64,000 nt of DNA, taken from NCBI GenBank assembly GCA_015075515.1, contig JABTUE010000002.1, positions 533,478 to 597,477 of the forward strand, given 5' to 3'. Source of the DNA: Planctomycetota bacterium (GTDB taxonomy: Bacteria; Planctomycetota; UBA8742; UBA2392). Below the pieces are notes generated by a model. That model searched no databases. It was given only the letters and a program-made list of their open reading frames with translations, and was not told the origin of the DNA. The position numbers and the translations under genes are program-made. Shown in pieces: positions 40,304-58,493 of the stretch (within the stretch, counting starts at the first letter, position 1; each line of letters begins with the position of its first letter).

Positions 40304-40312
40304 CTCGCGCTC

Positions 40313-40894
40313 CTACTTCATCAAACCAAACCTGCCGGTGCCGGCGTCCAGTTGCCACCACTGAAAGAACCCGTACGGAAAGTACTCCGCCTCGTTCGTC
40401 CTGCCCACCACCACAAGGGTCTCGCCTTCAAGGCCGACACGGCCGGCAAGGCCCATGGCCTGCACCACCTGCTCTTCCAATGCCCGCACCAGCTTCGGCG
40501 CGTCCTCCGGGTTTCGCCGGTAGCAAAACACAACCCGCAAACTGGCCCGAACAATCAGCACCTTCCACAGCGAGTACGCAATGCGGTCAACCGCCTGGCT
40601 GTTCTCAAGCTCTGCGACCGCTACCGGGAACCTCCATCGCTTCTCGCTATCCCCAAAGGCCATCATGTCCAGTGCCAGGTACTCGCTTTGGTTCACCGGC
40701 AGCAGCGTGGCCTTGTGCCCGATGGCTGATGCCTGCCAGCCCACTTCGCGGCAGGTTTCCACCGTGCAAGTCGTCAGCGCCCTTGTCCAGGCCGCGAGCT
40801 TGCCCTGCGTGGCCGCCTGCTTGAGCGGCCCGGCGTGCTCCTGCCTGCTGACCAACTGCAGGAAGACATCGCGCCAGTCCGCGGCCTCAACCAT
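40313..40894 (-). CDS. DUF3780-like small protein
   Basis: 193 aa, position between the methyltransferase and ATPase genes as in DUF1156/DUF499 cassettes; 1-nt stop/start overlap (TAATG) with the methyltransferase gene. Confidence 0.45.
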   Translation of the reverse strand: MVEAADWRDVFLQLVSRQEHAGPLKQAATQGKLAAWTRALTTCTVETCREVGWQASAIGHKATLLPVNQSEYLALDMMAFGDSEKRWRFPVAVAELENSQAVDRIAYSLWKVLIVRASLRVVFCYRRNPEDAPKLVRALEEQVVQAMGLAGRVGLEGETLVVVGRTNEAEYFPYGFFQWWQLDAGTGRFGLMK

Positions 40895-43818
40895 TAGAAG
40901 CCCAGTCCTTTCTTGCGGGCAAGCACGCCATCGACCCAGCGTTTTTCGTCCGTGCCCGTCGGGTACAGCGCCGACAACGCCTGTGCAAGCGTCCAGAACT
41001 TACCGTCGCGCCCGACGCCTTCGTCAACCAGAAAGCGTTTCATGGCTTCGCTGCGCCCGGCTGCGAACAGGATCATTGCCTGGTGCACACGGTCCAGTGT
41101 GGTCTCGCCTACCTTGGGGGCACCCTTCTTGCCCCAGCCGCCTTCAACTTCAGCCTGCTCCAGTTCTTCCTCGAAGGCCATTTGTTTCTGCTTGGACTTC
41201 TTACGCCGGCCAGCCGGCGCGTCGCTTTCATCCTTGCCGAAGAGAGCCTTGGTACGCTCAGAAACAGGCAACAGGCGTGCCGTGTCCTTTTCGATGGCGA
41301 CGACTGTCTGGAGATTCTCCAGGTGTGCGCCCAACCCCTGGGCTATCTTGCGCGCCGCGTCGTACTCAAGGCTGAAGCCGGCAGCCTTGCTCTTCTTTTT
41401 GTTCTTGTTGTTGTCGCTGTCGTCGGCGTCAGCGTCGCCACCGGCATCGTCTTCGCCGGAACTATCGGGTTTGCCGTTACCGGTACTCAGCGTCCAGAGC
41501 CACATGGCCGTGAGCCGGGCGTCTTCTTCGAGACTGGCTGCATCCACGCCCTGGAAGACCTGGTTTAGAGCTTCCTGGGACACGGCGGCCCAGACTTGCT
41601 CCAGATAAACCCGCAATGTCACTTCTTCGCCGCTGGCCTTCTCGACACGGGCGTAGCGCGAAAAGATCTCCAAGGCAGGGCCCAGGCAAGCGAAGATGGC
41701 ATCCGCGCCCACGATCCCTTCGGACCGGAGACGTGGCATCCACTCCGAAATGCGCCGAGGAAGTTCAGCGAGTACTTCACGCCAGTCGCCTACTTCGGCA
41801 TCGCGGAGTGAGCCGTCGGGGTTCTCGCGGGGCCTGCAAACCAAGTGGACCGAGCTGCTAAGTGCGGCTGAATCCTTCGCTCTCATCCGAGTGGTGTTCT
41901 CTGTGTGTATGGGCCAGGACGCCGTGACCATCCACCCGGCACTCACCAGTGCATTGAGAAGAGCTTCCCATCCGGCCGTGCCCTTGTGAGCGAAGATCAC
42001 GACACCCACTCCGTCAGGCTTTAGTGCTCGCCGGGCGTCCGCTAGTGCCGCTTGCATCGTTGCTTCGAAGTAACGTCTGTCCTTTGGGGGCCCTTCATCA
42101 GCCGGCGGCCCCGGGTCCATTATGCACTCCCCAGTTTTCGGGCTGAGTTGCGACGAGAACAAACCCGGATGAACATGAACCAAAGCACGCTTGAGCCACA
42201 CAAAGCAAAAATCTGACAGCGCCGCATATGGTATGGCGTCGTAGTACGGAGGGTCTGTCACAAGATATGTAAGAGAGTCATCGGGCAAGGGAGTTCTAGT
42301 TGCCGAGCATCGTGCGACCGTTCCCACTGATCGAATTGAATCCCCCTCCCGAGTCAGAAAGCTGACGATCAGACCATGCGCGTACTCGACACCGCCCACA
42401 AGCCTAGACATTAGTGGATTGGCCTCTGCAAAATCTGGCTTCATTGGTAGACCGCTTCCTTGGAACACGGTCCTGAAGTGATCGTGGCCAAAATAAGAAC
42501 ACGCGGAGAGCATTGGGGCGGTGTTACTGACGGCTAGGGCAATACACGATGCCACTGCGTCGGCGTAGTTGGCATCATCGCCTGCGCTGAGTATCTCCGC
42601 TCTGACATAATCAACGAGCCGGCACATAGTGCCCAACGCCAGTGCCTGCCGGGAAAGGTACACGTCGCTCCACCGTTCCATTCCGTATTTGTTTATTCGG
42701 TAGCCGAGAGTGCCGTCCGGCGGAGTTGGCTCATCCGGTATAAAGGAGTAATGGCCTTGGTTGTTGACTTCAATGCTGGAAAGTTCGCCCTCGGCACTTC
42801 GTGCTGCGTTGATGTCTTCCACAGTGGGCAACCGATAGTGTCGACCGCCGCCCTTGTCCAAGGTGATGACAGCAACCATGCGGGCATCTCGTGTGCCACC
42901 GTGCTTGGCTCGCAGCTGTTCTCGTGTCGCTTTGTACGGCGTCGTGTAGCCGCAGCACGGACAAGTGACTGCCATTCGATTGACAATGCCGGGCTGCACC
43001 TCTTTGTTAGACTTCGGCTCGAACACCTCAACATGCACTCTTTTGGCGGCTCGGTCGCCCCGATATCGCAGGGCCACACGAGACTTTGCTTTCTTGGACA
43101 GCCAAAGCATCCCCAGCAAGGGCACTTCTGCCCCGCAGGCAGGGCCTTCACATGTGATGGTGCGCGCCCAGATGTACGCCAAAGGGATGTTTCCCCTGCT
43201 GTCGGCCGGATAGAAGGCCGACAGTTTTTTTCGCGCTTGTTCCAGCACCCACTTGCCCCATTTCTCAACGCCCTCCGCAAGCCGATGCCCGAACTTGGGG
43301 AGGTACTCCTGCGATACCTTGTTCAGCAACACCGGAATGGGATTGAGGTCGCCGGCGAACGTGTTCGCCCCAACTCGCAGCGCCTCAAATGGAATCGAGC
43401 CCGCGCCGGCAAACGGGTCCATGATCAGCGGCGGACCCTCGGGATGTGCAGCCGAAACCAACCTGCGTGCGGCGGTCAGGTATGTGGGATTCACTCCCGC
43501 GTCCCAGGCCGCAAAGTCGGCCACAAACTGCAGCAGCGCTTGGCGCAAGGCCATTGGGTCCGACAGGTTGCGACCGGTAAACGGCTTGAGGGCTTCACGG
43601 GCGGCTGCACGAAATCCATCCGGGCAGTTCTCGTCAGCGGGATCCGGAACGATCGTTGCCAGAATGACCGCCCGGCAGGACGCCAAGGGCCGCGTTGCCC
43701 ACCAAACGTGCATGGTATGCAGGTGCCCCTTGCGCACATTCTGGTCCTTCCGCGCATGCTCCGAAATCTGACGAATCGGCAGGTCAACTTCGATGAGTTT
43801 CTTGGGTGCATTCTTCAT
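40894..43818 (-). CDS. DUF1156-like N6-adenine (DPPY-motif) DNA methyltransferase (974 aa)
   Basis: N-terminal KLIEVDLPIRQISEHARKDQNVRKGHLHTMHVWWATRPLASCRAVILA block characteristic of DUF1156; catalytic motif IV LVTDPPYYDAIPY; AdoMet-binding FAGAGSIP-like motif. Confidence 0.8.
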   Translation of the reverse strand: MKNAPKKLIEVDLPIRQISEHARKDQNVRKGHLHTMHVWWATRPLASCRAVILATIVPDPADENCPDGFRAAAREALKPFTGRNLSDPMALRQALLQFVADFAAWDAGVNPTYLTAARRLVSAAHPEGPPLIMDPFAGAGSIPFEALRVGANTFAGDLNPIPVLLNKVSQEYLPKFGHRLAEGVEKWGKWVLEQARKKLSAFYPADSRGNIPLAYIWARTITCEGPACGAEVPLLGMLWLSKKAKSRVALRYRGDRAAKRVHVEVFEPKSNKEVQPGIVNRMAVTCPCCGYTTPYKATREQLRAKHGGTRDARMVAVITLDKGGGRHYRLPTVEDINAARSAEGELSSIEVNNQGHYSFIPDEPTPPDGTLGYRINKYGMERWSDVYLSRQALALGTMCRLVDYVRAEILSAGDDANYADAVASCIALAVSNTAPMLSACSYFGHDHFRTVFQGSGLPMKPDFAEANPLMSRLVGGVEYAHGLIVSFLTREGDSIRSVGTVARCSATRTPLPDDSLTYLVTDPPYYDAIPYAALSDFCFVWLKRALVHVHPGLFSSQLSPKTGECIMDPGPPADEGPPKDRRYFEATMQAALADARRALKPDGVGVVIFAHKGTAGWEALLNALVSAGWMVTASWPIHTENTTRMRAKDSAALSSSVHLVCRPRENPDGSLRDAEVGDWREVLAELPRRISEWMPRLRSEGIVGADAIFACLGPALEIFSRYARVEKASGEEVTLRVYLEQVWAAVSQEALNQVFQGVDAASLEEDARLTAMWLWTLSTGNGKPDSSGEDDAGGDADADDSDNNKNKKKSKAAGFSLEYDAARKIAQGLGAHLENLQTVVAIEKDTARLLPVSERTKALFGKDESDAPAGRRKKSKQKQMAFEEELEQAEVEGGWGKKGAPKVGETTLDRVHQAMILFAAGRSEAMKRFLVDEGVGRDGKFWTLAQALSALYPTGTDEKRWVDGVLARKKGLGF

Positions 43819-45277
43819 GGGGACGATGCCTTGATCTTCTCAACCAGCGCCTTGCGTTCTGCTTTTGGTACGCCTTCCAGGTACGCCCGGGCCGCAACCG
43901 CAATCAGTTCGCCACGATTGAGCCGAGTTTGTGTCTCAAGGACGTCAAACCATTGGTGGTGGTCTCTGTCCCTGTTTGCGATGTCCGCGGCACCCCAATC
44001 AACATTCAAGCTTTCGCTGAAGCGCTGACGGAAGGTAGGCGACTTGAAAATCTCCTTTTCAGGCGGTTCCGTGCCAAACAACTTGAAAAGTTGAAGCCGT
44101 ACATTCTCGCCACAGTCTCCATCCCGCACGGCGCATATCGGGATGCGCTGATCTTTGAACACGTCCATCATCTGCGCGATACGGTCCTTATCTCCGGCCG
44201 CAAACACGCGTGCTGTCTTCAGGAAGTCCGCGTCATGCATGCGCAGAAGCTCGGTAACAACGGCCCCCGCAATTTCGTCCTCCACGAGAATGTAGATCGA
44301 CGGAATGGCCAAGCTGTCCATCATGCTGACGGCCTGGCGGACACCGATTCGCGGAATCGGAACGACACCCGTCCCCTCCCGCTTCAGGAAGACGCGAGAT
44401 TCTTCCGGCAGTGCCAAGAGTACATACTCGCTGTGTGTGGTCATGAGAATCTGGAGCTTTCGGCGCTTTGCAACCTCTACCAGGTACTTTCCGAGCTCAA
44501 ACTGGGCGCTCGGGTGTAGCGCTGTTTCCGGTTCCTCTAGCAGAATCAGGCTTTTCACTGGCGTGGCTTCCAAGGCTGTGACAACCAGGTACAGGCGGGC
44601 TTCGCCGGACCCCATGTTGGCCTCGGTGTATTCCGCGCCGACCTCGCGCTTGACGGTGAGCATATCAAAGGCCCGCCGGGCGTACCTCTTCTTCATGACA
44701 TTCACGTGGGCGGCGTCGTACTTGCACAACAGGATCTGCGAGACGCGTTCAATCACCTCGGCTTGGATCTGCTTTCTCTCACGCGCAGAGAGTTCGGCAT
44801 CTTCAAGTTGCTTCTTGACTCCGCGCTCCGCTCCGAGTGCGGCACGTAGAACCCTGTACCGATGTAACGGACGTGGCGATCTGGCTGGCGGTCGTAGCCT
44901 GCCCATGAATCGCCTGAACGTGACACCGTATTGGTAGTTACCCTTGCCGCGCCATCCTTGCCCGGCTGAGCTGCGTAGAAAAACTCTACCGACGCATCAT
45001 CCCGAAACGGTTTCTGCGGCAATCCGCCTACGAGGATGAATGTAGATACGTAGTAGCGCTCTTTACACTTGTATGCGGACGCTGCAAGCTGCAAGACCGT
45101 TGACTTGCCTGTGCCATTCACGCCGCAAAGCGCCAAGATCGGGCTCTCGATGGAGATCGTTGTGTCGGTGTGGTTGCGGAACCCCTGTATCCGCATGCGC
45201 ATCAACACTTCGCCGTAGCGCTCAAAGCGCGTTGACGCTGCAAAGTCCGCCTGAAGCTCTTTACGCGGATCAGCCAT
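43815..45277 (-). pseudogene. OLD/PARIS-like ABC-type ATPase plus TOPRIM(DUF4435-like) nuclease gene, disrupted by a frameshift near 44840-44865
   Basis: Upstream frame (45277-44753): Walker A GVNGTGKST. Downstream frame (to 43815): Walker B/D-loop LILLEEPETALHP, MTTHS, then TOPRIM-like ILVEDEIAGAVV...AAGDKDRI...AVRDGD. The two frames overlap by ~150 nt with no intervening in-frame stop. Confidence 0.55.
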
Positions 45278-48200
45278 TCACGGCCCCCTTGATGGCCTGT
45301 GCTGAAACAGCGTAATGCTCCACGGTCACGATGGGCTTCCATCCCAAGCGTGCCGGGTTGCGCACCACGTGAACTTGGGGTGTCGAGCCGCAGTTGAAAA
45401 CCACGTACAGCCAGAAGTCGTCCTTCAGCCGTTCGGCGGTCTTGTATTCGTTGGTGGTCAGCGCCACCTCGCCCACGCCCGAGCGTCCCTTCACCTCAAT
45501 GAAGCGCACGTCTATAGCTGTGGCCGGGTCCTCCGGGTGCGGCAGCCTTGATATCAGATCAAAGCCACGGTTCTCGTTCTCGACGCTCTCGACCGTGCGG
45601 CCCTGGGCTTCCTCGTAGGCGATCACGGCTTGCACGGCAATGCGCTCAATCTCGTCGTCCCGGACCATCGGGGCCACGCCGGGCGAGGTGCGCTCCGGGT
45701 GCGGCAGAACCCAGGCGCAGCCAACGTGCTGGATTTCGCCGATAGTGCACTGGCACTCGCGGTCAAGCTCGGCGATGCGCTGCTCGCGCCGGCCATTCAG
45801 TTCTTCCAGCCTGTCTTCGGCCTGCTTCATGCTTGCAATCAGCCACGGCGGCGTGGTGCCGAGCTTGCTGGCCTGGTCATGCAGCCCGGCATAGGTCATC
45901 TGCTGGCGGTGGATCAGCTCGTTCAGGCTGATCTCAATGTGCCGGCGGATGGTGTTGGTTTCCTTCAGGCGCTGCTTGGCGACCTCGGCCAGGAAGCCTG
46001 TCAGGCACTTGTCCATCAGGGCGTGCTCTCTGGCCTCGCGGGACGCCAGACCATCAGGCCCCGGCGCGGCGGTGCCCTTTGGCGCGGCCGTCAGGTCAAG
46101 GAAGATGGTGGGCTGCCGCACGGAAAGCTCGCCGCCCGGCGTGGCCTGCACCACAAACAGGCGACGGTGCAGCACGTTGCCAAGGCCGTCCTTCACAGAC
46201 GCCGAAAACACGTCCAGGTGGTAGGGCACGGGACTGTGCAGGTCATGAAACACCGCGCCGCGTCCCAAGCCCTCGCGCACTTGTTCCCACAGAGTCTGGC
46301 GCACGGTTTCAAACAAGGGGTGGCCGGGTGTGACCCATTCGCACGTGGGATCTTTGCTAAGCAGGGTTTTGTCAAAGACGATCTGCTTGTACTCGCGGCC
46401 CAGTTTGCCAAATCGGGACTCAAGCTTGTCGCCCATGGGCCACAAGTGCCGGGGCACGCGGCCGACACGATAGTTGTGGCTTGCGGCCGGCGTTTCTTTG
46501 GGCACGACACCCACAACTGGGCCCGCCTGGACGAAGAAATCCTCGATGACCTCGGGAACGAGGCGGCGCTCGCGGGCCTCGGCCGATTTGCCTACGATGG
46601 CGGAAAGGTTGAGCTCTTTCTTGGCCAGGCCTTCGAGGGTTGATTCAGTGATCTCGCGGAAGCGTTTGGGGTCAACGTCCTGCACGATGCGGGCCTTGAT
46701 GCTCTCTTCTGTCTGGTTGTGCAGGTACATGTCGCGGATCAACTTCTCGAGCTGGTTCGACGGAAACAAGTCGCCCAGCACGTTGAACACCTTCCCGGTG
46801 CGCAGAGGGTCCAGGTCGGCTTCGATCTGCTCCAGACGTTCAAACAGCTTGTCCAGCACGCGGCCTTCACGTGTGTTGGTGGCCACGAAGTTGAAGATGA
46901 GGCAGTCTTTCTCCTGGCCGTAGCGGTGGATACGGCCCATGCGCTGCTCAAGCCTCACGGGGTTCCACGGGATGTCGTAGTTGATCATGAACCAGCAGAA
47001 CTGCAGGTTGATACCTTCGCCCGCGGCCTCGGTGGCTACAAGTACCTGGGCGGAATCACGAAACTCTCGTTCGGCGTAGATGCGGGTGCCGGGCGTGTCG
47101 CGGTCGCCGATCTTCATGCCGCCGTGGATCTGGGTGACCGACAGCCCCCAGCCGTTCATCTTGCCGACGAGGTAATCCAGCGTGTCCTTGTGCTCGGTGA
47201 ACAGCAGCAGCTTCATCGCCGGGTCTTTGAAGATGCCCTTCTCGATGAGCAACTCGCGCAGGCGTGTCAGCTTGGTTTCAATCTCGCGCTGCTCCAGCAG
47301 CTTGGCCTGGTCGATCAACTTGTTCAGCTCGATGATCTCTTCGCGCAGGGCAGCCGGGTCAACGGACGCGACCACATCTTCAAGCTCGGCCAGAATCTCC
47401 TGCTGCTCGTCGTCCGGCAGTTCATCGAAGTCCTCCGGCAGCTTCTTGTTGATCTGCCGCTTACGGTAACCTTCGGGGTCCTTGAGAATGTCCTCGCGCT
47501 TGTCGCGCATACGCTCCAGGCTGCGGCGTGCCGCATAAACACTGGACGCTAGCCGGCGCTGCAACATGGCCATCGTGAAGCCAACAGCGCGGCCGGTCGT
47601 GGCATTGGCTGCCTGGGCCTTAATGGACTGATCTTCAACGTAGCGCGTGAGCGTGTCGTAGAGGTCCCACTCGTCGCTGTCGATCTCGAACTTGGCCGTC
47701 TGGACGTTGCGCTTGGTGAACAGTTTTTTGATCTGGCCGGTGTCCGGGTCCGGGAACGTAACCAGGGCTTCTTTGGTCCGGCGCAGATAGAACGGCGCGG
47801 AGTTGCGCTGCATGGCTTCTTCAAGGCTCTTGACGTCGCCGTACACGTCGGAATCCAGCAGCCGCAAGAACAGGCAGAAGTGGTCCGGGTCGCCCTTGTG
47901 CGGCGTGGCTGTCATGAGCAGGTAGTGGTCGGTCATCGCCGACAAGTGCTCGCCAAGCTGGTAGGCCAGCGTCTTCTTGTCAGCACTGTAGGCCGACATT
48001 TTGTGGGCCTCATCGACAATGATCAGGTCCCAATGGCTGCGCAGCAGGCTTGCGCGGGCATCGTCAATGCGCGACACCCAGGACACTGACGTGATGACCT
48101 GGTTCTTGTCTTGCCACGGGTTGGTGCCGTAGTTCGCGCGCAGCACGTCACCCTTGACGATTTCAAAGGTCTCGCGGAACTTGTCTTTCAGTTCGCGCTG

Positions 48201-48731
48201 CCACTGAAAGGTGAGGTTCGCCGGCGTGACGATCAACGTGCGCTTTGCAAGGCCGCGAACCTTGAGCTCCTTCAGCAGCAAACCGGCCATGATGGTCTTG
48301 CCGGCGCCCGGGTCGTCGGCAAGCAGAAAGCGGATGCGCGGCAGCTTGATGAAGTAGTCGTAAACGGCCTCAAGCTGGTGTGGCAGCGGGTCCACGCGGG
48401 CGATGGAAAGCGAGAAGTAAGGGTCGTACTCGTACGCTAGGCCAAGCCGCAGCGATTCCACGCCAAGGCGGAACTGCACCGGGTCGCCATCGAACGGCGG
48501 TTGATCGGGGCTGACATTGAGTGAGGCTAGCTGGGTGGGGTCGAGGACAGGCTCATAGACCTTGCCCGAGTCCAACCCCTTGCCAACAAGCTTGACCGAG
48601 GGCCCGACGGGCATGCACACGATTACCTGCACGGGCTCTGGGAACAGAGAGCCGCGCACGATTGCTCCGGGTTTCGGCGCACTTCCGGTCATCCGCCCGC
48701 ACCAGTTGGTTCGAATCACCCATTCAGCCAT
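45270..48731 (-). CDS. SNF2-family helicase with C-terminal DUF3883-like (restriction-endonuclease-fold) domain
   Basis: Motif I LADDPGAGKTIMAG, motif II LIIVDEAHKM, helicase-C motifs VLVATEAAGEGINLQ and QRMGRIHRYGQ; C-terminal ~120 aa (IDVRFIEVKGRSG...WLYVVFN) resemble DUF3883. Confidence 0.8.
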   Translation of the reverse strand: MAEWVIRTNWCGRMTGSAPKPGAIVRGSLFPEPVQVIVCMPVGPSVKLVGKGLDSGKVYEPVLDPTQLASLNVSPDQPPFDGDPVQFRLGVESLRLGLAYEYDPYFSLSIARVDPLPHQLEAVYDYFIKLPRIRFLLADDPGAGKTIMAGLLLKELKVRGLAKRTLIVTPANLTFQWQRELKDKFRETFEIVKGDVLRANYGTNPWQDKNQVITSVSWVSRIDDARASLLRSHWDLIIVDEAHKMSAYSADKKTLAYQLGEHLSAMTDHYLLMTATPHKGDPDHFCLFLRLLDSDVYGDVKSLEEAMQRNSAPFYLRRTKEALVTFPDPDTGQIKKLFTKRNVQTAKFEIDSDEWDLYDTLTRYVEDQSIKAQAANATTGRAVGFTMAMLQRRLASSVYAARRSLERMRDKREDILKDPEGYRKRQINKKLPEDFDELPDDEQQEILAELEDVVASVDPAALREEIIELNKLIDQAKLLEQREIETKLTRLRELLIEKGIFKDPAMKLLLFTEHKDTLDYLVGKMNGWGLSVTQIHGGMKIGDRDTPGTRIYAEREFRDSAQVLVATEAAGEGINLQFCWFMINYDIPWNPVRLEQRMGRIHRYGQEKDCLIFNFVATNTREGRVLDKLFERLEQIEADLDPLRTGKVFNVLGDLFPSNQLEKLIRDMYLHNQTEESIKARIVQDVDPKRFREITESTLEGLAKKELNLSAIVGKSAEARERRLVPEVIEDFFVQAGPVVGVVPKETPAASHNYRVGRVPRHLWPMGDKLESRFGKLGREYKQIVFDKTLLSKDPTCEWVTPGHPLFETVRQTLWEQVREGLGRGAVFHDLHSPVPYHLDVFSASVKDGLGNVLHRRLFVVQATPGGELSVRQPTIFLDLTAAPKGTAAPGPDGLASREAREHALMDKCLTGFLAEVAKQRLKETNTIRRHIEISLNELIHRQQMTYAGLHDQASKLGTTPPWLIASMKQAEDRLEELNGRREQRIAELDRECQCTIGEIQHVGCAWVLPHPERTSPGVAPMVRDDEIERIAVQAVIAYEEAQGRTVESVENENRGFDLISRLPHPEDPATAIDVRFIEVKGRSGVGEVALTTNEYKTAERLKDDFWLYVVFNCGSTPQVHVVRNPARLGWKPIVTVEHYAVSAQAIKGAVNG

Positions 48732-49576: not shown

Positions 49577-49690
49577 CAAACTGAAATTCAATGGCCGTTT
49601 TATGTGGGAGTGGAGGTGGGAGCGCGCCTGCCTCTCTCGGATCGAAAACCGCCAGCCTCGGCATAAGTGCTTTGGCTGGCGGCGTTTACT

Positions 49691-49775
49691 TGGAGCGGGC
49701 GAAGGGGTTCGAACCCTCGACCACCTGCTTGGGAAGCGACAAGTACACACCTTCCCCCAACTAGACCGACTTGGC
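49691..49775 (-). other. tRNA-like 3' fragment (T-arm, acceptor 3' strand, CCA) without a matching 5' acceptor strand; candidate att-site remnant
   Basis: Minus-strand reads ...GGTCGAGGGTTCGAACCCCTTCGCCCGCTCCA, a canonical T-stem/loop/acceptor/CCA. No complementary GCGGGCG 5' strand could be found by eye. Confidence 0.4.
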
Positions 49776-49863
49776 CCAATGAGCCTCACACTGGCTTCAC
49801 GGGCTGAGTTGCGGGCGATTGACGATCCCGGATCAAAACCTTGCATGTCCCTGCTTGTCCCGG

Positions 49864-49896
49864 ATATCGTGTACATATCGTGTACATATCGTGTAC
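49864..49896. repeat. Three perfect tandem copies of 11-bp ATATCGTGTAC
   Basis: Read directly at 49864-49896, ~45 bp upstream of the integrase start codon; candidate integrase arm-type binding sites. Confidence 0.7.
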
Positions 49897-49941
49897 AACG
49901 GGGACGCCTGTCGCGTAAGCAGGCGGTCATGGGTTCAGGTC

Positions 49942-51207
49942 ATGGCGAGGTCGAGAAAACCAGCGCGGGTCGTGAAGTGGCGCGGTGTGTGGTACCTGTT
50001 CTACACGGACCACAGCACCAACCGGCAGATGCGCCTGGCATGCACCTCGTTGGGCGCGACCAACGCGGACGAACGCCGCGAGCTCCTCAACGAGTATCGC
50101 TCCAAGGAAGTCAACGATCTTGCCGAAGTCAACAAGCGCGGGGGCGGCTTGGCATACGATCGCCCGTTGATCACGGAGCTTGACAGCTACGTGGAGGCGT
50201 CGCTCAAGCGGGTATCTATTCGTGCCGCCAATCCAGAAGCGCGTAGCGGACTGAGCGCCAAGACCGGCAAGGTGATCGAGAATGTTGTGGACCACTTCAA
50301 GAAGTGGCTTATCCGAACCGGCCGAGAGCGATTGACCACGGGAAGGCTTGATGGCCCAACGCTGCGCGAGTATCGCGACGACTTGGCGGCAGAACCCGCG
50401 CGGCTTGGTCGCAAAGCCGTCAAGAGGTCCGCGCCGACCATCAACCAGTATCTGCGAACGATCAAGACCTGCCTGGTCTTCCTGCACTCAAAGCGCCCTC
50501 CTCGATTCCCAGACTTCGAGAACTTGAGGATTGCGCTGAAGCCACTGCGGGAGGATCGGAAATCCCCCGTGGCATACACGCCGGCGGAGCTTCGGGCCTT
50601 TCTGGCGGAGGCGGAGGCCCGCGAACAACCCCACAAAGTAGTGGAGGTTCAACGAACCAAGCACGACAAGCCAGAGAAGTTCCTCATGGAGACGGTCAAG
50701 ACTGCTTCCACGCCTGTTTCGCGCCTCTTTCTGGTCTTGGCGCTGATCGGATGCCGCCTGGGCGAAGCCCTGGCCCTGAGGTGGCAGGACGTTGATCTCA
50801 ATCGTGGCAGGATCACCATCCGTGCGCCCAAAACCGGACGCACGCGCTGGATTCCATTGGTGGGCGCCCCCGAGGGCGCCATTGCGCCCTCTTTGCTGGA
50901 CAGGTTGCGGCGCTGGCGTGAAGAAGACCCCAAACGCGAGTATGTCCTGCCCCACACTGGCCTAGACGCGCCCGTCTTTCCCAAGGGGGCATGGAAGGGC
51001 ACCAACCGCAACGCGGGCATCAGGGCGATCTCCCCGCAGCACCTGCGGCAGAACTTCACCAGCTACGCGGGCTCACTTGGCATCCCTGCCACGGTGGCGG
51101 CCATGTGGCAAGGGCACGGTGCAGACGTGGCTGAGAAGCACTACCGCGCCCAAGTACTCGACCGCAACGAAGGAGCTTCCTTCGACGTCGCGATGGGATT
51201 AGCCTGA
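49942..51207 (+). CDS. Tyrosine-type site-specific integrase
   Basis: C-terminal catalytic region ALIGCRLGEALALRWQDVDL (Arg I), HLRQNFTSYAG (His-x-x-Arg), HYRA (Tyr nucleophile); start at ATG 49942 rather than upstream 49819. Confidence 0.8.
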   Translation: MARSRKPARVVKWRGVWYLFYTDHSTNRQMRLACTSLGATNADERRELLNEYRSKEVNDLAEVNKRGGGLAYDRPLITELDSYVEASLKRVSIRAANPEARSGLSAKTGKVIENVVDHFKKWLIRTGRERLTTGRLDGPTLREYRDDLAAEPARLGRKAVKRSAPTINQYLRTIKTCLVFLHSKRPPRFPDFENLRIALKPLREDRKSPVAYTPAELRAFLAEAEAREQPHKVVEVQRTKHDKPEKFLMETVKTASTPVSRLFLVLALIGCRLGEALALRWQDVDLNRGRITIRAPKTGRTRWIPLVGAPEGAIAPSLLDRLRRWREEDPKREYVLPHTGLDAPVFPKGAWKGTNRNAGIRAISPQHLRQNFTSYAGSLGIPATVAAMWQGHGADVAEKHYRAQVLDRNEGASFDVAMGLA

Positions 51208-51227
51208 ATTGAGAATGAGAGGAACGT

Positions 51228-51701
51228 ATGGGCAAAGTGCCTCATAACTCCAAGGCGGCAGATGCTGAATCAGCAGTTTCGCGTAGCGCGATTCAGCTGG
51301 CTGCCGCTGTCAAGAACTTCCCCGCGCTTGACGCCGAAGAGCATTTGATACCACTTTCCGAACTTACGGAAGTGGTCACCGTAAGGACGAACCAATGGTC
51401 GTCCCGCGTTCAGCGGGCTCTGGATAAGCTCGACATCTGTGCGGCACAACTACCAGACGCAAAGCGGTCAACCACGGTACTCGCAGCCAGTGCCCGGATT
51501 GACGAACTGTTTGATCCGGTACGTCAACAAATCGCTGAAACTATTGCGGGGTACAAGGCTGGGTATCTTGCACCTCACGAACGGCGCGACGTCCTGTTCT
51601 GGTCTTGGCGGGCTATCAAGGAGAAAGCTGAACTGCTTTTAGCCTCAGCAGAGGAAATCCGCATGCTCGCACTGCGCGAAGTTCCTCTTCAAAGATCGTG
51701 A
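51228..51701 (+). CDS. Hypothetical protein
   Basis: 157-aa ORF 20 nt after integrase stop, GAGAGGAA RBS-like before ATG; no motif. Confidence 0.4.
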   Translation: MGKVPHNSKAADAESAVSRSAIQLAAAVKNFPALDAEEHLIPLSELTEVVTVRTNQWSSRVQRALDKLDICAAQLPDAKRSTTVLAASARIDELFDPVRQQIAETIAGYKAGYLAPHERRDVLFWSWRAIKEKAELLLASAEEIRMLALREVPLQRS

Positions 51702-52105
51702 CGATCGTGCTGACTGATCCGTCTCAACCCGGACGCGGCAAGAAAGGGGCGGATGTGGATTGGGGGGATGGCAGAACTTATGTGCCGCCATCCGTCGCGG
51801 AGCTAATCAAGGACGTATTCACGAACGGTGCTGGCTGGCACCCGGCTGCCGCATTCATCGGTCGTGACCGGGGTGAAGTTGTTGACGTCGTGAAGTACCC
51901 GGGTCGCAAAAGATACCAAGAGGGGCTCAAGAAGTTGATCCCGAAGTTGGCAAGGCTTGTGAACGAGGACAAGAGCAGCAAGCGCCCCAGTAAAGAGCCG
52001 CGCACCAACCGAAGGTACGTGCTCAAGGGCGGCGTGCGGGTCGAAGTAGTCGACTGTCGCTCACGCAAGGCCAAGGCCCAGCAAGATACGCCGGACACCA
52101 AGTAA
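51698..52105 (+). CDS. Hypothetical protein
   Basis: 135-aa ORF overlapping upstream stop by 4 nt; no motif. Confidence 0.4.
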   Translation: MTIVLTDPSQPGRGKKGADVDWGDGRTYVPPSVAELIKDVFTNGAGWHPAAAFIGRDRGEVVDVVKYPGRKRYQEGLKKLIPKLARLVNEDKSSKRPSKEPRTNRRYVLKGGVRVEVVDCRSRKAKAQQDTPDTK

Positions 52106-52562
52106 CGCCTTTACGGCCAATGCTTGCGGAAACAGCGACATAGGGGCTGTGGCGGACCTCGCGGGCGGCGTCAACCGAAACCATGGCCCAAGGCTCCGCC
52201 GCATCCATCATCGGCTCCTTTTCCGCCAAACCGCAGCGGTTTTCGCAAATCACCTGACTCGTGATCTGCTCCGGTCGTTGGTGCCCCCGTCACTTGATTC
52301 CGCAGCATTCGCCATTACGGCTGCATTACGGATTCAAAATCGGTCAAGTAGTTTGACCCTCGTACCCTCCTGGAACGCAGGTGGAATGCGGCTTCTGCGG
52401 TGTTTTGCGTTTCAGCGGAATTTCTTTTTGGTTACAACCGCAGCTCTCTAGAGAAGTCGCGCCGAGCGCCACAATGCCCTCACGTCAACGAGATCAAGCA
52501 GAGCTCGCTGACACGTGCGAAGGGGAACAGTTGTGGAGCAGGCACCTCGGATACCTCGACTC

Positions 52563-52772
52563 ATGACGCTTGTCCAGGCAGCGGCCGCGCTTGGTCAACA
52601 CGTCAGCGTCAAGGTGCTCCGGGCAGAAGTGAAAGCAGGGCGCCTGCGCTGCTACCGAGTACGCCCCGGAGCAAACTCGAAAATTCTGCTCAGTGAGTGT
52701 GACCTCGCGGACTGGCTTCAGAACGTCGCTGGCAGTCGCCAGAGGGCGTTTCGCCAACGCGGCGCGCACTAG
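52563..52772 (+). CDS. Excisionase/AlpA-like helix-turn-helix DNA-binding protein
   Basis: 69 aa, LMTLVQAAAALGQHVSVKVLRAEVKAGRLRCYRV resembles the Xis/AlpA HTH_17 fold; position between integrase and primase genes. Confidence 0.45.
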   Translation: MTLVQAAAALGQHVSVKVLRAEVKAGRLRCYRVRPGANSKILLSECDLADWLQNVAGSRQRAFRQRGAH

Positions 52773-52791
52773 AAATCAGGAGAAGTCAACC

Positions 52792-54837
52792 ATGGCTAAG
52801 AAGACAAATCCACCAGAGTCGTTCGAAGGGAATATTGAAGACCTTTATGAAGACGGACAACTACAGCCCAGTTCGGCCCAAGGCGACCCAGGCACATCCC
52901 AGGGTACGATGACGCCAACTTCGGACTCGCCTACGGAGTCTGCCGCAGAGGACGGCTCGAATCAGACTGCGGCTGCCGCCCCGGCCAACTCATCTACCTC
53001 CCCCAAGGACAACCCGGTCATGGCGGAGCATGACGATCAGGGTGCCCCTTCAGGAGTGGCCGGATCTGACGGCTTGAGAGCTGAGGGCGCCAATACAGGT
53101 GCCGAAAGTAACCCCGCTGACAATGAAGCTCCCCAAGGCTCCGGTGCGGATGTGGATGTGGATGTGGATGGGCCGGATGCCGCCGCTGCAGAAGGCCCTC
53201 CAAAGCCGCCGGAGGTCACGCCAGCTGTTGCTGAAGACGCACAACACATGAGCGTGGCGAATGACCACTCGGCGTCGGAAAGCCAACCTGCCGGCCCGGA
53301 CGCGAATAGTGTCGGTAGTGCTGCATCAGGAGTAGTCCCTGCAGGTTGTGCTGGACGTGGACAATCCCATCTAACCTACGACCTGCCCGTATCCGATCGC
53401 ACATCGGAGTTCGTCGACTTGATGAAGGACTCCCACAGAGTGTTTCGCGCCGAACCAGGCGGTACGGCTCCGGGCAAGCGCATACTATTGCTCGTCGGAA
53501 CGCCCCCGCATGTGCGCTTGCGCATGGCGGCGCCTGCAGAGTTGCGCCACGACCTTGCGAACTACATTGATGTCTATTCGGAAAGACTCAAGGGCTACAT
53601 TTCACTCCCTATGGAGGAGACGTTGAGCGTTCTGCACAGTGTGCACCTTTCCAGACTGCCTGCGATCACCCGTGTCGCCAACGGTGTGGCTTACAATGGC
53701 GACTACATCCAGCTGTCCGCCGGTTACGACCCGGCCACGCGGACGTATGTCACCCACAGAGTTCAGGCTGACGCGCAGGCAGTTGGCGCATTTCGACAAC
53801 TGTGTCGCGGATTCAAATTCAAGGACGAGGCCAGCTTCGTCAACCTGCTGGGATTCCTGCTCATTGCGATGCTGGGTCCCCTGATTGTGCGCGCGCCAGG
53901 CCTGATGATCATGGGCGACCTGCTGGTCGGTACTACCGCGGGCAAGACGACCTTGGCTCTGATGTTGAAGGTCATCATTGACGCTTTCTGCGCACCCCGA
54001 ATCTACACATTCCCCCACGACGAGAAGGAGTACGTCAAGTTGCTCGGCGGCATCCTCAGCGAGCCGAATGAGCGAGTTGTGGTGTTCGACAATGTCAAGC
54101 CAAAAAACGGTAACTCATACTTGGAGAATCAAACCTTTGAACAGCAGATAGGCGCCAGAGTACTGAATGTGCGTGTTCTGGGTACAAGCCATCAAATAGC
54201 CCGCATCAATGACCTTCTGTTTGTTTGTACGGCCAATGGCCCCTCCATGGCGATCGATTTTGCCAACCGATTTATCCACAGTCATTTGGAAGTGCCGGAC
54301 GGCGGAGTGCGTCCGGAGCCAATGATTGACAAGGTAAAGGAGGCCGAGGAACAACGCGAAAGGGTTCTCGCCGAGCTGGCCTACATGGTCCAAGTATGGA
54401 AGGAGAAGGGGGCGCCCTTGTCAACCAAGTGCAAGCACCGCGACCAAGCCATGGCCAGTTTGATTGGCGGCATCATGGAAGCCAACGGATACGATGCCTT
54501 CCTGGCCAACCACAGTTCTGCCCTTGCCGGGGCTACCGGTCCGTTGGTCGAGACCTACTACACCTTGGCGTCGCTGAACATGGCAAAGAAAGGTGGGACC
54601 TTCACTGCCCTTGAGTGGGTCAACCACGTTCGCGACAACAAGGCGCTAAAGCAGCACTTCCCCGCCACGGTCTCACTTCACAGCCAGCGTGCCCGCGCCA
54701 ATACCTTCCTGCAGCACGTTGCCCAAAACCCGGTAGTACTGGACGGCATCCGCTACACACTCACGGTGATCAAGAACAAGCGCAACAACAACTACTTCGT
54801 CACGGAGGAAGCCCTGCCCGGCCACGAGGCCGAGTAG
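52792..54837 (+). CDS. Phage/plasmid primase P4-family C-terminal domain plus P-loop NTPase protein, acidic disordered N-terminus
   Basis: ANGVAYNGDYIQLSAGYDPATRTYVTH...LLGFLL...GDLLVGTTAGKTTL matches the remembered P4-primase C-terminal/D5-like NTPase pattern including Walker A; AGGAGAAG RBS before ATG 52792. Confidence 0.5.
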   Translation: MAKKTNPPESFEGNIEDLYEDGQLQPSSAQGDPGTSQGTMTPTSDSPTESAAEDGSNQTAAAAPANSSTSPKDNPVMAEHDDQGAPSGVAGSDGLRAEGANTGAESNPADNEAPQGSGADVDVDVDGPDAAAAEGPPKPPEVTPAVAEDAQHMSVANDHSASESQPAGPDANSVGSAASGVVPAGCAGRGQSHLTYDLPVSDRTSEFVDLMKDSHRVFRAEPGGTAPGKRILLLVGTPPHVRLRMAAPAELRHDLANYIDVYSERLKGYISLPMEETLSVLHSVHLSRLPAITRVANGVAYNGDYIQLSAGYDPATRTYVTHRVQADAQAVGAFRQLCRGFKFKDEASFVNLLGFLLIAMLGPLIVRAPGLMIMGDLLVGTTAGKTTLALMLKVIIDAFCAPRIYTFPHDEKEYVKLLGGILSEPNERVVVFDNVKPKNGNSYLENQTFEQQIGARVLNVRVLGTSHQIARINDLLFVCTANGPSMAIDFANRFIHSHLEVPDGGVRPEPMIDKVKEAEEQRERVLAELAYMVQVWKEKGAPLSTKCKHRDQAMASLIGGIMEANGYDAFLANHSSALAGATGPLVETYYTLASLNMAKKGGTFTALEWVNHVRDNKALKQHFPATVSLHSQRARANTFLQHVAQNPVVLDGIRYTLTVIKNKRNNNYFVTEEALPGHEAE

Positions 54838-54965
54838 GCGCACGTTCCCGGTGACCGGAGGCCTTCCGGCTTCCGGTCACCGGGGCGGGAAAGCCCTCAG
54901 AAATGCAGTGAGTGCAGTGGTCTCAGTTGTTTTTGCACTGCGGCCCCGGCGATCAAGGAGAAGCC

Positions 54966-56552
54966 ATGAACGATGTCCAAGCGGCAGAACGCGTACGGGG
55001 TCAAGAGACCGACGTTGCGGGCGTCGATGCCAAACAGCTTCCAGGTTCCAGCTTGCATGGCGATGGCAAGCGTCACCCTGTCGGCTTCAGCATGAGTGTT
55101 GTGGGCGTCAGGCGGACAGCAGGGGCAGGGGAGGGCTTGGTACCTGTGGAACTGGACGAAATCTCAGCCGAGGCGGTGGTCGGGGCTCTGGATGACGCCG
55201 GTCAATACGACGGCGGCGCGGTCATCCACATGTTCTCACCTCACTTGTTTGCCAAGCGGGTCTATGTGGGAACTTCCATGGTGGTGTGCCGCGTCGTCCG
55301 CCTCGATGGCGAGGGTCGAGAAACCGACCTCACCGACGTTGACGTGGACCGACTGAAGTCTGTCTTGCACGATGGGCAAAACTACCACATCGCGATGCCG
55401 GGGCGGCAGGAACTGATCGTGTTGCTGCTAATGAGCCGTCCGGTGCTGCCGCGCCAACAGCCCATCCATGACACCGGCCTCAAGGGCCTGTTCAACCGCG
55501 CCGCGCTTGGCGCCAGCGCACTCCTGGAAGGCGCCATCGCCGCGGCGGGCATGCAGATCGCAAGTGAAGCGGTCTTGCCCGCCTCCAACCGCCACGGAAC
55601 CCCGAGCTATGAGAAGGGTGAAGAAAATGGGCGCGGCTTCCGCAGGGCGCTGAACTTCAAGCGTGTCTCCGGGCTGGCGGCTGTCCCGGTTCTGGGGTTC
55701 CGGCAGGAGGTTCAAGTGCCTCTGGGTTCCAACATACAGGACGAGCGCTTTGGCCATCCGGCCTTTGTGTCCCGTCGCGCCCTGTACTCGCCGGAAGAGC
55801 TGGCGTCCTATGCGCCCGCGCCGGAAAACGCGCTGGACCAGGACGAGGCCACGTCATTTCTGGCTCGCCTGCGCTCCCCTCAGTACCGCACCGAGCTGAT
55901 GCAACGCTTTGCGGCTACACACGGGGAACTCGCCTCTTTCGGCGGTTTGGCGGCACGCCTGCAACCCGTGCCGGCGGAGGAGCTTGAGAAGGCGCTCGGG
56001 GACATGGCCGCATTCTCCGAGAACCTGGCGATGGTGAACAAGATGCGCACGGACGCCGGGCTGCCCCCGGTGGGTTACCGCAGCCAGCCCTTCGGCATGG
56101 CGCACTCCAACGACGAGGTCATCAGCGATCCCATCGAGCTGTTCCGTTTCAAGGCCAAGAGCATGTTCCTGGGCGGTGAGTTTCATGCCGCTCTGCTCAG
56201 CGGTGGTCCGCCCACCGAACTCGTGGTGCCCATGGACCAGCTCGGCTGGCGTCCGCTTGAAGGTGGACTTCTGCGTGGCGGCGTACCATGGGAAGCCAGC
56301 GGCCCCCGTGTGGCGTGGATCGAACCGGGCAAGGATCAACTGCTGCTCGATCTGCAGGCTGTGCTCCAGCATTTCCGCCAGACCGGGCTCAAGCGCTGTG
56401 TTGACCTCTGCGTCAGACCGGCGCACTTCGCGCAGTTGATGGCTGGCGCCGGTCTGCTTTCGGGAACAAGCACGTCCGCCACGACAAGATCCATCGAGTC
56501 AACTCCCCGCTCCGTGTACCGCCTGAAATTCAAGAGCTTCTTTCTTGGCTAG
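54966..56552 (+). CDS. Hypothetical protein
   Basis: 528-aa ORF starting at ATG 54966 with AGGAG RBS; no recognised motif. Confidence 0.4.
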   Translation: MNDVQAAERVRGQETDVAGVDAKQLPGSSLHGDGKRHPVGFSMSVVGVRRTAGAGEGLVPVELDEISAEAVVGALDDAGQYDGGAVIHMFSPHLFAKRVYVGTSMVVCRVVRLDGEGRETDLTDVDVDRLKSVLHDGQNYHIAMPGRQELIVLLLMSRPVLPRQQPIHDTGLKGLFNRAALGASALLEGAIAAAGMQIASEAVLPASNRHGTPSYEKGEENGRGFRRALNFKRVSGLAAVPVLGFRQEVQVPLGSNIQDERFGHPAFVSRRALYSPEELASYAPAPENALDQDEATSFLARLRSPQYRTELMQRFAATHGELASFGGLAARLQPVPAEELEKALGDMAAFSENLAMVNKMRTDAGLPPVGYRSQPFGMAHSNDEVISDPIELFRFKAKSMFLGGEFHAALLSGGPPTELVVPMDQLGWRPLEGGLLRGGVPWEASGPRVAWIEPGKDQLLLDLQAVLQHFRQTGLKRCVDLCVRPAHFAQLMAGAGLLSGTSTSATTRSIESTPRSVYRLKFKSFFLG

Positions 56553-56559
56553 GAGAGAC

Positions 56560-57546
56560 ATGGACATCCTCGACAAGAACCAAGGCTATGACGCGCTCTC
56601 CATTTGGGAGCTCGCCAAGTCCTTGTACAAAGTTCGGATCTTTCGAGGCCACGTCGCCAACGAGGCTGTCGTGGTGTGGCGGGTACCAGACAAGCACGAG
56701 TGCGCGGTCAGGGTGCAAGTGCAGGACCTGCCCCAGCTGGCGTGGCGCTTTGCGGTGATGCCCGGCGTGTGTCTCCCGGGGGGTGCCCAGATCGCGCCAC
56801 AATTCGATGATTGGCGTCCAGTGGTGCCTTCGCTGCACGAGCTAGCGCTGTTGCCGGTGGTCAGGCATATTGCCCGCGGCCTCTGCTGGCCAAGCGGCGG
56901 ATTGCAATGCGGCCCCGGCTATATCCCGGAAAAGCAGCTGCTCGTACTTGAGCCCGAAGTCGTAAAGACGAAGTTCGCTAACTCCGCGGCCGAACTCGCT
57001 GCCAGGCTGCCGTTTTCGAATGCAGTGGCGGCGCGGAAGTGGCTGGAATGGCTTGCGCTGGCGGTCCAAGTCCCGTCGCAGGCCCCACCCTTGGTTATTG
57101 CGGGCAGTGCGGTTGAACCCGTGAAGTCCATCGTGGCTGACGTGTCGAGCGCGCTGGTCGAGGGCAAACCGCCTTTCCGCCTCAACCGATCGGGTCAGAG
57201 CGACCGACGACTTCGTGTTCAGCTGGAGCTTGCCTACCGTAGTTGTCTACGTGTGGCCATACTGCACCAGCCCCAGTTCGGGGCGCATTTTGATCGAGTG
57301 CTTGAACTGCTGCTTCGCGGACGAACCAGCGGCAATCTGCACAGCCCCGAGGTACTTGTCCTGGTGGTGGGAAAGTCGTACTCGCCATCACCGTTGCTGG
57401 ACAGCGGGCAATGGCTGGAGGTGGAGACGCCGCATACTAAGCTCCGCCCGTCCATCACGCGACATGCCATGACCACCCGGCAACAAATCTTGCAGGAGAT
57501 CGTGGCTCAGCGCTTTGCGACCGCCCCGACTCGTGAGCGTGAGTGA
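56560..57546 (+). CDS. Hypothetical protein
   Basis: 328-aa ORF starting at ATG 56560 (AGGAGAG RBS), about 10 nt after the stop of the upstream gene. Confidence 0.4.
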   Translation: MDILDKNQGYDALSIWELAKSLYKVRIFRGHVANEAVVVWRVPDKHECAVRVQVQDLPQLAWRFAVMPGVCLPGGAQIAPQFDDWRPVVPSLHELALLPVVRHIARGLCWPSGGLQCGPGYIPEKQLLVLEPEVVKTKFANSAAELAARLPFSNAVAARKWLEWLALAVQVPSQAPPLVIAGSAVEPVKSIVADVSSALVEGKPPFRLNRSGQSDRRLRVQLELAYRSCLRVAILHQPQFGAHFDRVLELLLRGRTSGNLHSPEVLVLVVGKSYSPSPLLDSGQWLEVETPHTKLRPSITRHAMTTRQQILQEIVAQRFATAPTRERE

Positions 57547-58493
57547 AAAAAAGAATTTTCAGAAACAATTTGGCAGCTTTTTTGCCGTGGTGTAACGGTA
57601 GTTGTCTGTGGTGTAGGCTGGGCTGGCCAAGCTTGCGGTCTCGAACTTGACCAACTCGCTCAACTCGATTCCTAAGATCCTTGAGGTCTAGAGAATCGGC
57701 TACTAACGCCAAAACATCACAACAAAATAAGACTTCTGGTAATGCCAGAACAAACCAAGAATGTCCACGAGACGAGAAACCGTGTTGCACGGAAACACTA
57801 TCCTTACGAGGATAACCAAGCCGTATCAGCCACGTCCCCAGGGGACAGATACCCGTCGAGGAAAACTGTCAAGGCGACAGGACACCAGCCACCCGCTCCA
57901 GCGGGCTGAAGTTGGCGGAGTTGCTTCGCGGTCTGGCGAATCAGGAGTCGCGACCCAGATTCGTCCGGCCCGACGGCAGGCGCCGACTGGCTGAAGAACT
58001 ACGGTGGCGGGGTCGCAACCCGCCCCGAAATCTGAACACAACCAACCTGAACTGCGCAATCCCGGCCGTGGGGACGCCCGCGGCCGGGATGCACGTCTTC
58101 CAAAAACAGCTACGCTGCTGAAGTTGTCGCACCGCTTGCTATCATTGTGCCGCCAAGGGCTTGAACTGGAGTTCGAGCCAGGCAGATAACGCAAGAAATG
58201 CCGTTGGCTGGCCGGGTTCGACCAGCCAACGGTAAACGATGAACAGGGAGATTTGACGGGGCAGGCCGGCTTGGCTGCCCACGACAGAACGAGAGCGCAA
58301 ACAACTGTTTTCTGCGGCTCACACGAATCGGCCAAATTCACATACGACCGCAGATACGAGGCGCCCCGCTTGGGGCGGCCTGCGTGTCTGCTTCGTATAG
58401 GGCTCTTGGCCGAGCCCGTGTGAGGGCGGCGTGGGTCGTCCCTCCTTTCGTTTAGGGGATTGGCTGCCCACGCACTCTTGTGTGGGGACGGCC

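Follow-up and report, generated by a model that had tools for sequence, protein, structure and literature searches.

The segment at 49691-49937 of the window, the 64,000-nt stretch of DNA analysed here, is very probably the integrase-proximal attR of a ~31-kb island inserted in a Planctomycetota tRNA-Gly(CCC) gene. The core of this attR, in tRNA orientation, is 49691-49737, a displaced 47-nt 3' fragment of the tRNA gene that lies on the minus strand and runs from the anticodon loop to the CCA. The arm on the island side carries three perfect tandem ATATCGTGTAC units (49864-49896, plus strand), which are candidate arm-type integrase-binding sites, and next to it a gene for a tyrosine integrase of 421 aa (49942-51207, plus strand) is transcribed away from the tRNA fragment.

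The fragment is identified by its exact match to intact genes. BLAST of a Planctomycetota tRNA-Gly(CCC) gene, whose intact sequence is GCGGGCGTAGCTCAGTGGTAGAGCTCCTGCTTCCCAAGCAGGTGGTCGAGGGTTCGAACCCCTTCGCCCGCTCCA, against the window aligned 49737-49691 with tRNA positions 29-75 at 47/47 identity (E = 5e-20). The match comprises 2 bp of the anticodon stem, the loop TTCCCAA, the 3' anticodon stem, the variable loop, the T-arm, the 3' strand of the acceptor, the discriminator and the CCA. The 32-mer GGTCGAGGGTTCGAACCCCTTCGCCCGCTCCA, which corresponds to the minus strand of 49691-49722, was found at 104 places in a scan of one genome per species and is, in Planctomycetota, the 3' end of tRNA-Gly(CCC); the tRNA identity in the window reaches beyond it, to 49737. 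No second copy of the 47-mer occurs in the window with up to 3 mismatches allowed, and 0 of 100 shuffles contained it. Likewise, BLAST found within the window no degenerate tRNA-Gly fragment and no pieces of its tRNA-Thr or tRNA-Val.

The position of the insertion was obtained from unoccupied sites, found via a 48-aa gene 175 bp left of the fragment on contigs from other samples that share the same left flank. Three of these contigs (L116, L119 and L120) are 100% identical to the left flank of the window exactly up to 49737, and a fourth (L114) follows it at 95% identity up to the same base; beyond it, all four run on into the 5' half of a tRNA-Gly(CCC) that is complete and is called by ARAGORN. 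Because the sister contigs match up to 49737 and then carry an intact tRNA, they represent the unoccupied attB and set the boundary between 49737 and 49738. This alignment shows that the island starts at 49738. Past the intact tRNA, the empty-site contigs encode a 664-aa DUF2075/Schlafen-type helicase (L114 9432-11426, L116 1142-3136), which has very many ~65%-identical homologues across phyla.

On the other side of the fragment, an intrinsic-terminator hairpin with a U-run occupies 49644-49683 of the minus strand (stem 49648-49683). It folds as RNA with -23.9 kcal/mol (z = -3.86), is followed by UUUUCG, and is also present 3' of the intact tRNA in all four empty-site contigs (L114, L116, L119, L120), as the native 3' flank of tRNA-Gly, in host DNA. 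As shown by the same alignments, 49691-49737 together with the terminator at its left is the original 3' end of the host gene, split from its 5' half by the insertion. Sorting post-CCA terminators into native and island-supplied ones was also tried and dropped as inconsistent, JAHBYA010000001.1 having the reverse pattern.

A functional RNA gene of an unusual kind (a tRNA that is split, permuted or interrupted by an intron, or a tmRNA in two pieces) has in its favour that T-arm, acceptor strand and CCA are perfect and that a strong terminator comes after them. However, the only ARAGORN calls in the window are tRNA-Thr (9541) and tRNA-Val (20265), and neither ARAGORN, which detects permuted tmRNA, nor any of the Rfam models, at gathering or at E<=10, called a complete tRNA or tmRNA at 49691-49737; the 5' half is therefore truly missing, and the sequence is a fragment rather than a gene. 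These negative results rule out a tmRNA, a permuted tRNA and an intron-containing tRNA. The 5' acceptor strand GCGGGCG is missing upstream of the fragment, and every base of the sequence agrees with the 3' part of an ordinary tRNA-Gly, which sister strains have intact at the same position. A functional RNA gene is thus already contradicted, and we give it next to no credence. The earlier note had described a 3' tRNA (or tmRNA) fragment of the kind left by tRNA-targeting integrases, had sought the complementary 5' acceptor strand in vain, and had named a search for a complete tRNA or tmRNA as the check. The fragment is indeed that of a tRNA, tRNA-Gly(CCC), with contigs of identical flank carrying the uninterrupted tRNA here, and the absence of the 5' strand and of a complete gene is borne out, whereas the tmRNA alternative falls with the missing ARAGORN and Rfam calls and the exact match to tRNA-Gly.

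A second copy of the block can be traced in the contigs that contain the element. Every island contig with the identical integrase (L002-L007) starts inside the 47-nt tRNA block. The first base of L002 corresponds to 49708 and the last base of the left-flank contig L115 to 49720, the two contigs entering the block by 30 nt each from opposite sides; from 49708/49709 onward, the body of the window is 99.99% identical to L002 and 99.3% identical to L003. The Logan assembly, which we take to have used k = 31, breaks at a repeat that has two contexts per side, and the breaks are thus indirect evidence for a second copy of the block (attL) in genomes carrying the element. At that far end, ~31 kb to the right, the island's own 47-nt copy would rebuild a functional tRNA. 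A metagenome scan yielded no junction between host flank and tRNA, a homology search found no copy of the DUF2075 host gene of the empty site at >=90% on the 144-kb contig of the source MAG, and synteny upstream of tRNA-Gly is too weakly conserved among representatives to walk from.

The island body (49738-64000) runs off the window, which takes in the first 14.3 kb of it. Its total length of ~31.4 kb is estimated from Logan contigs of 31,380 and 31,780 nt (31.4 and 31.8 kb) that begin inside the tRNA block, and in the related island of JACKIE010000008.1 the distance from the intact tRNA to the fragment is 31.7 kb. The far end is predicted ~31 kb rightward, at window-equivalent 81.1-81.5 kb, beyond the window.

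The integrase sits on the island side of the fragment and matches PF00589 with E = 1.7e-12. Its start codon is the ATG at 49942, instead of position 49933 as given before. The protein is 100% identical to database protein P0001 and has 117 homologues, of which the members named by a source are from Planctomycetota. The residues R272, K297, R369, H392 and Y401 are invariant in 52 homologues, and the first His of the HxxR motif is replaced by Gln (A1 consensus PQxLRQNF). The AlphaFold2 model has a pLDDT of 92, and Foldseek matched it to XerA, IntI4, Tn1549 Int and lambda Int with E values of 1e-8 to 1e-6.

The relatives of this integrase are found at the same target. At least 8 Planctomycetota contigs, including JACKIE010000008.1, JAOSKM010000002.1, JADJRK010000001.1 and JAMQHL010000021.1, carry an intact tRNA-Gly(CCC) together with one or two 3' fragments on the same strand, 13-58 kb downstream. 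Taken together, the compared loci show that the integrase family targets tRNA-Gly(CCC). As a side observation, integration into this gene recurs in Planctomycetota MAGs and makes it a hot spot (loci L008-L095), where the integrases are 23% to 66% identical to that of the window; several contigs, for example JAOSKM010000002.1 at 460-520 kb and JADJRK010000001.1 at 196-286 kb, have two tandem islands, each with its own fragment and integrase.

The position of the integrase relative to the fragment had been considered atypical in the earlier note and suggestive of rearrangement or of a second, nested element, in which case the integrase would not belong with the fragment. The argument has some basis in that divergent shapes (SIT + OD) account for <8% of cases among integrase genes beside full tRNA genes (PMC2951348). 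However, that a displaced 3' fragment always has the island on its 5' side is the configuration rule used as a filter by Islander (PMC4383910), and a tblastn search showed that the integrase adjoins the fragment and diverges from it in 10 of the 11 related Planctomycetota islands with an integrase match (L067, L059, L030, L084, L033, L016, L008, L056, L047 and L053; the sole exception is L040). Since the same layout recurs in ten related islands, it is the norm for the family, and no rearrangement or nested element is required. The fragment, a spacer of ~200-280 bp and the divergent integrase recur in these ten loci, the related arms are colinear from the core to the ATG, and the islands seen at both ends have one integrase each, at the fragment end, with no integrase match in the 8-kb blocks around their intact tRNAs. 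Rearrangement or nesting is already contradicted by these observations, and its probability is very low indeed.

The site of strand exchange within the core can be narrowed by comparing alleles of the target. In L003-L007, whose integrase is 100% identical to that of the window, and in L173 (88%), the fragment has a different T-arm, GGTCGTGGGTTCGAGCCCCAT..., which occurs in intact genes too (L175/L176). Identical or close elements therefore adjoin two T-arm alleles, which places the element in hosts or strains with different target alleles. Because whatever lies 3' of the crossover in the fragment comes from the host and its alleles differ, the exchange must lie 5' of tRNA position 50, within GCTTCCCAAGCAGGTGGTCG. 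Strand exchange would thus fall in the interval from tRNA position 30 to 49, at the anticodon loop or close to it, and so belong to the anticodon-centred class, which is common in Islander (PMC4383910). The second tRNA-Gly(CCC) allele, with the T-arm GTGGG TTCGAGC CCCAT, is seen at the starts of L003-L007, in L173 (1-47) and in L175 (1011-1085).

The 11-bp units stand out in the arm between core and integrase. Tandem Repeats Finder reports 49864-49897 with period 11, 3.1 copies, 100% matches and a score of 68, the highest in the window, and so agrees with the three perfect units noted before. With up to one mismatch, ATATCGTGTAC occurs 4 times in the 64 kb vs 0.12 expected (30-fold), three of the four being those of the array, which is the sole source of the excess. 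The last unit ends 45 nt before the integrase ATG at 49942. The number of units varies among elements with an identical integrase, being three in the window, L001, L002 and L007 and two in L003-L006, and all relatives at 66-88% integrase identity have two. Judged from this distribution, two units are the ancestral state and the third is a recent duplication. In an alignment from core to ATG of six elements with integrase identities of 66-100%, CGGAT(A/T)TCGTGTACATATCGTGTACA is invariant amid a diverged spacer.

The window contains only the integrase-proximal arm, with its three units; the far arm is known from relatives. Related islands carry the cognate motif twice in tandem at their far ends, in the same orientation, 65-95 bp after the CCA and past a hairpin: GTACACGATTTT and GTACACGATATT in L054, GTACACGCTATT and GTACACGATAAA in L039, GTACACGATATT and GTACACGATTTG in L175/L176, GTACCGCAAATC and GTACCAACAATG in L024, and GTACCGTGAATT and GTACCAAAAACC in L036. 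In L054, L039 and L175/L176 this is the same motif as that of the window's units, twice on the far arm, and the 8-mer TCGTGTAC is confined to the unit pairs in L067, L054 and L059. More distant relatives have, at the same place in the proximal arm, two tandem units of another motif (TTTTCGGTAC/ATCTCGGTAC in L030, ATTTCCGGTAC/AATTCCGGTAC in L084) and, in both these loci, inverted copies of the motif closer to int as well; a covarying motif (GTACCG...) is found on both arms of the 50%-identity clade. The motif is thus present on both arms in the relatives seen at both ends (L067/L054, L059/L039, L030/L024 and L084/L036), and at the far ends of L175/L176 too. In a set of ten islands, the mean number of 8-mers in common is 5.3 for matched arm pairs vs 1.5 for mismatched ones.

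A motif distinct from the core that recurs on both arms and changes along with the integrase clade is what marks the arm-type sites of heterobivalent integrases. The comparison of position, sequence, both arms and clade covariation supports the view, already put forward as plausible in the earlier note, that the ATATCGTGTAC units behave as arm-type recombinase sites. They would be bound by an extra N-terminal domain of the integrase. Such a domain, with a beta-beta-beta-alpha topology, is predicted for the first ~66 residues, before the core-binding domain, with a pLDDT of ~90 in the full-length model. A matching pair of GTACACGAT units after the intact tRNA is expected on the far arm of the window's island; by analogy with lambda Int, this pair would link the arm sites to the core within the recombination complex.

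The protein side of this proposal is less distinct. Searches of the PDB gave no significant match between the N-terminal domain and known arm-binding folds (best 3ju0, E 2.5), Pfam gave no arm-domain match in the integrase, and hhalign against lambda Int aligned the catalytic motif only. Since the domain lacks a match to known arm-binding domains, its predicted binding to the arm units is suggestive only.

The main rival to the arm-site reading accepts the island end as real and has the ATATCGTGTAC units bind another protein of the element, either an HTH_17-like excisionase candidate or a repressor of the int promoter. The candidate excisionase or directionality factor is an 85-aa ORF at 52515-52772 (plus strand) with a weak HTH_17 match (PF12728, E = 1.3e-3, below Pfam's cut-off), and the syntenic 73-aa gene in the relative L174 has an unmarked match to PF12728. 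The ORF is kept in the island backbone, where the gene order int, ~290 aa, ~80 aa, ~560-710 aa and ~520-545 aa is maintained in L002-L007, L168 and L174. The placement of the units 45 nt before the int ATG would also suit an operator, and the N-terminal domain of the integrase is without a tie to known arm-binding folds. Tandem direct repeats beside a core can serve an excisionase or a repressor too, as do the tandem directionality-factor sites X1 and X2 of lambda Xis. Repeats in this position are typical of directionality-factor sites, for example those of TorI in KplE1 (PMC2951348). On the other hand, four independent relatives have the motif on both arms, in the same orientation and about equally far from the core. 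The directionality-factor sites known to us occupy one arm only. The covariation of the motif with the integrase clade likewise favours binding by the integrase, although a small HTH gene would covary too. We therefore regard binding by another protein as unlikely, and retain the integrase as the probable ligand of the units.

It could also be supposed that the site is a dead scar, i.e., that the island is immobile, its partner site lost and the repeats mere products of slippage without function. The partner site lies beyond the window and was not observed in the host genome, the third repeat unit is a recent duplication of slippage type, and the backbone gene at 51228-52105 is frameshifted in the window. 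However, the integrase is full length with all catalytic residues present, empty and occupied sites both exist with flanks that are 100% identical, and the identical integrase is also found beside a different tRNA allele. Furthermore, down to integrase identities of 66% the repeat keeps its two-unit core unchanged between diverging flanks, and in samples with the island the assemblies break on either side of the 47-mer, which implies a second copy there. A dead scar is accordingly quite improbable in our view.

The frameshifted gene follows int directly. It is a single 292-aa ORF in L002-L007, whereas the copy in the window is divided into 157 and 135 aa by a 1-base indel; the gene is broken in L001 too, in another way. 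The frameshift in the window may reflect an error of sequencing or the onset of decay.

Between the core and the repeats, the island-side spacer (49738-49863), part of the integrase-proximal arm, is poorly conserved compared with both of them (alignment A3, six relatives). Just before the 11-bp units, at 49842-49861, Tandem Repeats Finder detected an imperfect direct repeat of 2 x 10 bp, TGCATGTCCC/TGCTTGTCCC, whose place is taken by a GCTTACCTTGATTTGGC motif in related arms; the repeat may serve as a promoter or as a site for an accessory protein.

On the other side of the units, an imperfect palindrome (49903-49936, plus strand; arms 49905-49910 and 49920-49925) abuts the int start codon and looks like a core-type site. 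Its right half and the next bases (49917-49936) resemble tRNA-Gly 36-55 in 17 of 20 positions, a BLAST match that is not significant alone (E 0.47), and of which the AGGGG part may simply be the ribosome-binding site. Relatives have at the same place a perfect 8-10 bp palindrome, GACCACCTGC-N7-GCAGGTGGTC (L067 6304-6330; L174, L168, L172/L173), the right half of which equals tRNA-Gly 39-48, i.e., the 3' anticodon stem and variable loop, and the spacer of which has the length of the anticodon loop. The palindrome of the window is degenerate and weak (DNA fold z = -1.06), and in relatives at 50% identity it is missing. From these alignments the palindrome looks like a symmetrised core site. It might be a second, core-type operator for Int, with int gated by arm sites and a decoy core, or else a cryptic secondary recombination site; we hold either role to be rather doubtful, and we know of no described core-mimic operator at an integrase gene.

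A promoter scan of the arm found no sigma-70-like promoter between core and int. The int promoter must fall within the 204 bp from core to ATG and thus among the candidate arm sites. A comparable arrangement is found in the recombination module of KplE1 (and of the HK620/Sf6 type; Panis et al. 2010, PMC2951348), where the intS promoter overlaps the att arm with its IntS and TorI sites and the layout gives negative autoregulation. Both systems transcribe int from an attachment region beside tRNA sequence, with arm-type sites and promoter within ~200 bp; in KplE1, however, the neighbour of int is the intact tRNA (attL, convergent), and here it is the displaced fragment (divergent). By analogy, such a layout would predict negative autoregulation and the uncoupling of int from the excisionase gene, and binding of Int at the repeats would probably also repress int, a speculative extension of the KplE1 case.

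Among the closest known systems are the tDNA islands of the anticodon-centred class A in Islander (Hudson, Lau & Williams 2015, PMC4383910). Shared traits are a tyrosine integrase inside the island, a displaced 3' tDNA fragment downstream in the same orientation, a block of identity that starts from the anticodon stem-loop and, in relatives of the window's island, tandem arrays at one tDNA. Here, by contrast, the host phylum is Planctomycetota, tRNA-Gly(CCC) is apparently a clade-wide hot spot, and the integrase is at the fragment end and not beside the intact tRNA. Of the marks by which Islander recognises an island, the window and its sister contigs provide the incomplete tRNA end fragment, the integrase on the island side and the unoccupied site with a boundary at the fragment edge, and the intact cognate tDNA at the other end, in the same orientation, is found in relatives (JACKIE010000008.1 and others).

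The arrangement of the arms recalls that of lambda Int and attP (P1, P2, P'1-3), which likewise has short non-core direct repeats on both arms, ~100-150 bp from the crossover and with 2-3 adjacent units on one arm, and an integrase whose core-binding and catalytic domains are preceded by an extra N-terminal one, as predicted here. Unlike in lambda, the N-terminal domain here has no detectable sequence or fold match to that of lambda Int, the core is inside a tRNA gene, and the 5' rather than the 3' end of int faces the att site. P4-like enterobacterial islands (tRNA, int, cargo, direct repeat) also combine a tyrosine integrase, the 3' part of a tRNA and variable cargo that includes defence genes; in contrast to them, the integrase here is at the opposite end of the island, has no P4-type N-terminal domain (DUF4102) by Pfam, and belongs to a clade restricted to Planctomycetota, as far as sources name its members.

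The site is thus an ordinary kind of element that is unusually well documented, mechanistically textbook and of small surprise. Its value lies in an island boundary set to a single nucleotide in an uncultured genome of Planctomycetota, a phylum whose mobile elements are little known (our literature search found no paper on tRNA islands in it), and in showing tRNA-Gly(CCC) as a recurrent integration hot spot in the clade, with tandem arrays. A defined integrase, its attB and candidate arm sites provide raw material for integrase-based genetic tools in this phylum, whose members are difficult to engineer, and, for annotation, the island explains the variable, defence-rich 30 kb that flank the site.

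With respect to the nature of the element, the 22 kb of island seen showed no recognisable phage or conjugation genes. IMG/VR contains no exact match to the 11-bp repeat and no relative of the integrase above 35% identity, and thus gives no sign that the element is a phage. The cargo is not common to the window and the JACKIE island. It is defence-like or accessory in look (60253-61653, and L112 11373-21401, which is window-equivalent 61.6-71.6 kb) and includes a PD-(D/E)XK protein matching the PADLOC candidate PDC-S26, a PDZ protein, a glycosyltransferase/radical-SAM cluster, ankyrin-repeat proteins, a PDDEXK_1 nuclease, a weak DUF932-like match and a second SNF2 helicase.

The flank on the host side (~39400-48731) contains a defence system of the Hma type. 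HmaA is an SNF2/NOV_C helicase (45270-48731, PADLOC E 2e-194), genes for a DUF1156 methylase and a DUF499 ATPase lie further left, as seen in L001/L113, and a split AAA_15/HEC-04-like ATPase is inserted between the genes of the system. The sister contig L114 has other genes beyond the Hma helicase. The G+C content decreases from ~0.65 (1-34000) to ~0.60 (34000-64000), a drop that begins far left of the island boundary and suggests that the DNA of the host-side flank, too, was acquired horizontally or is variable.
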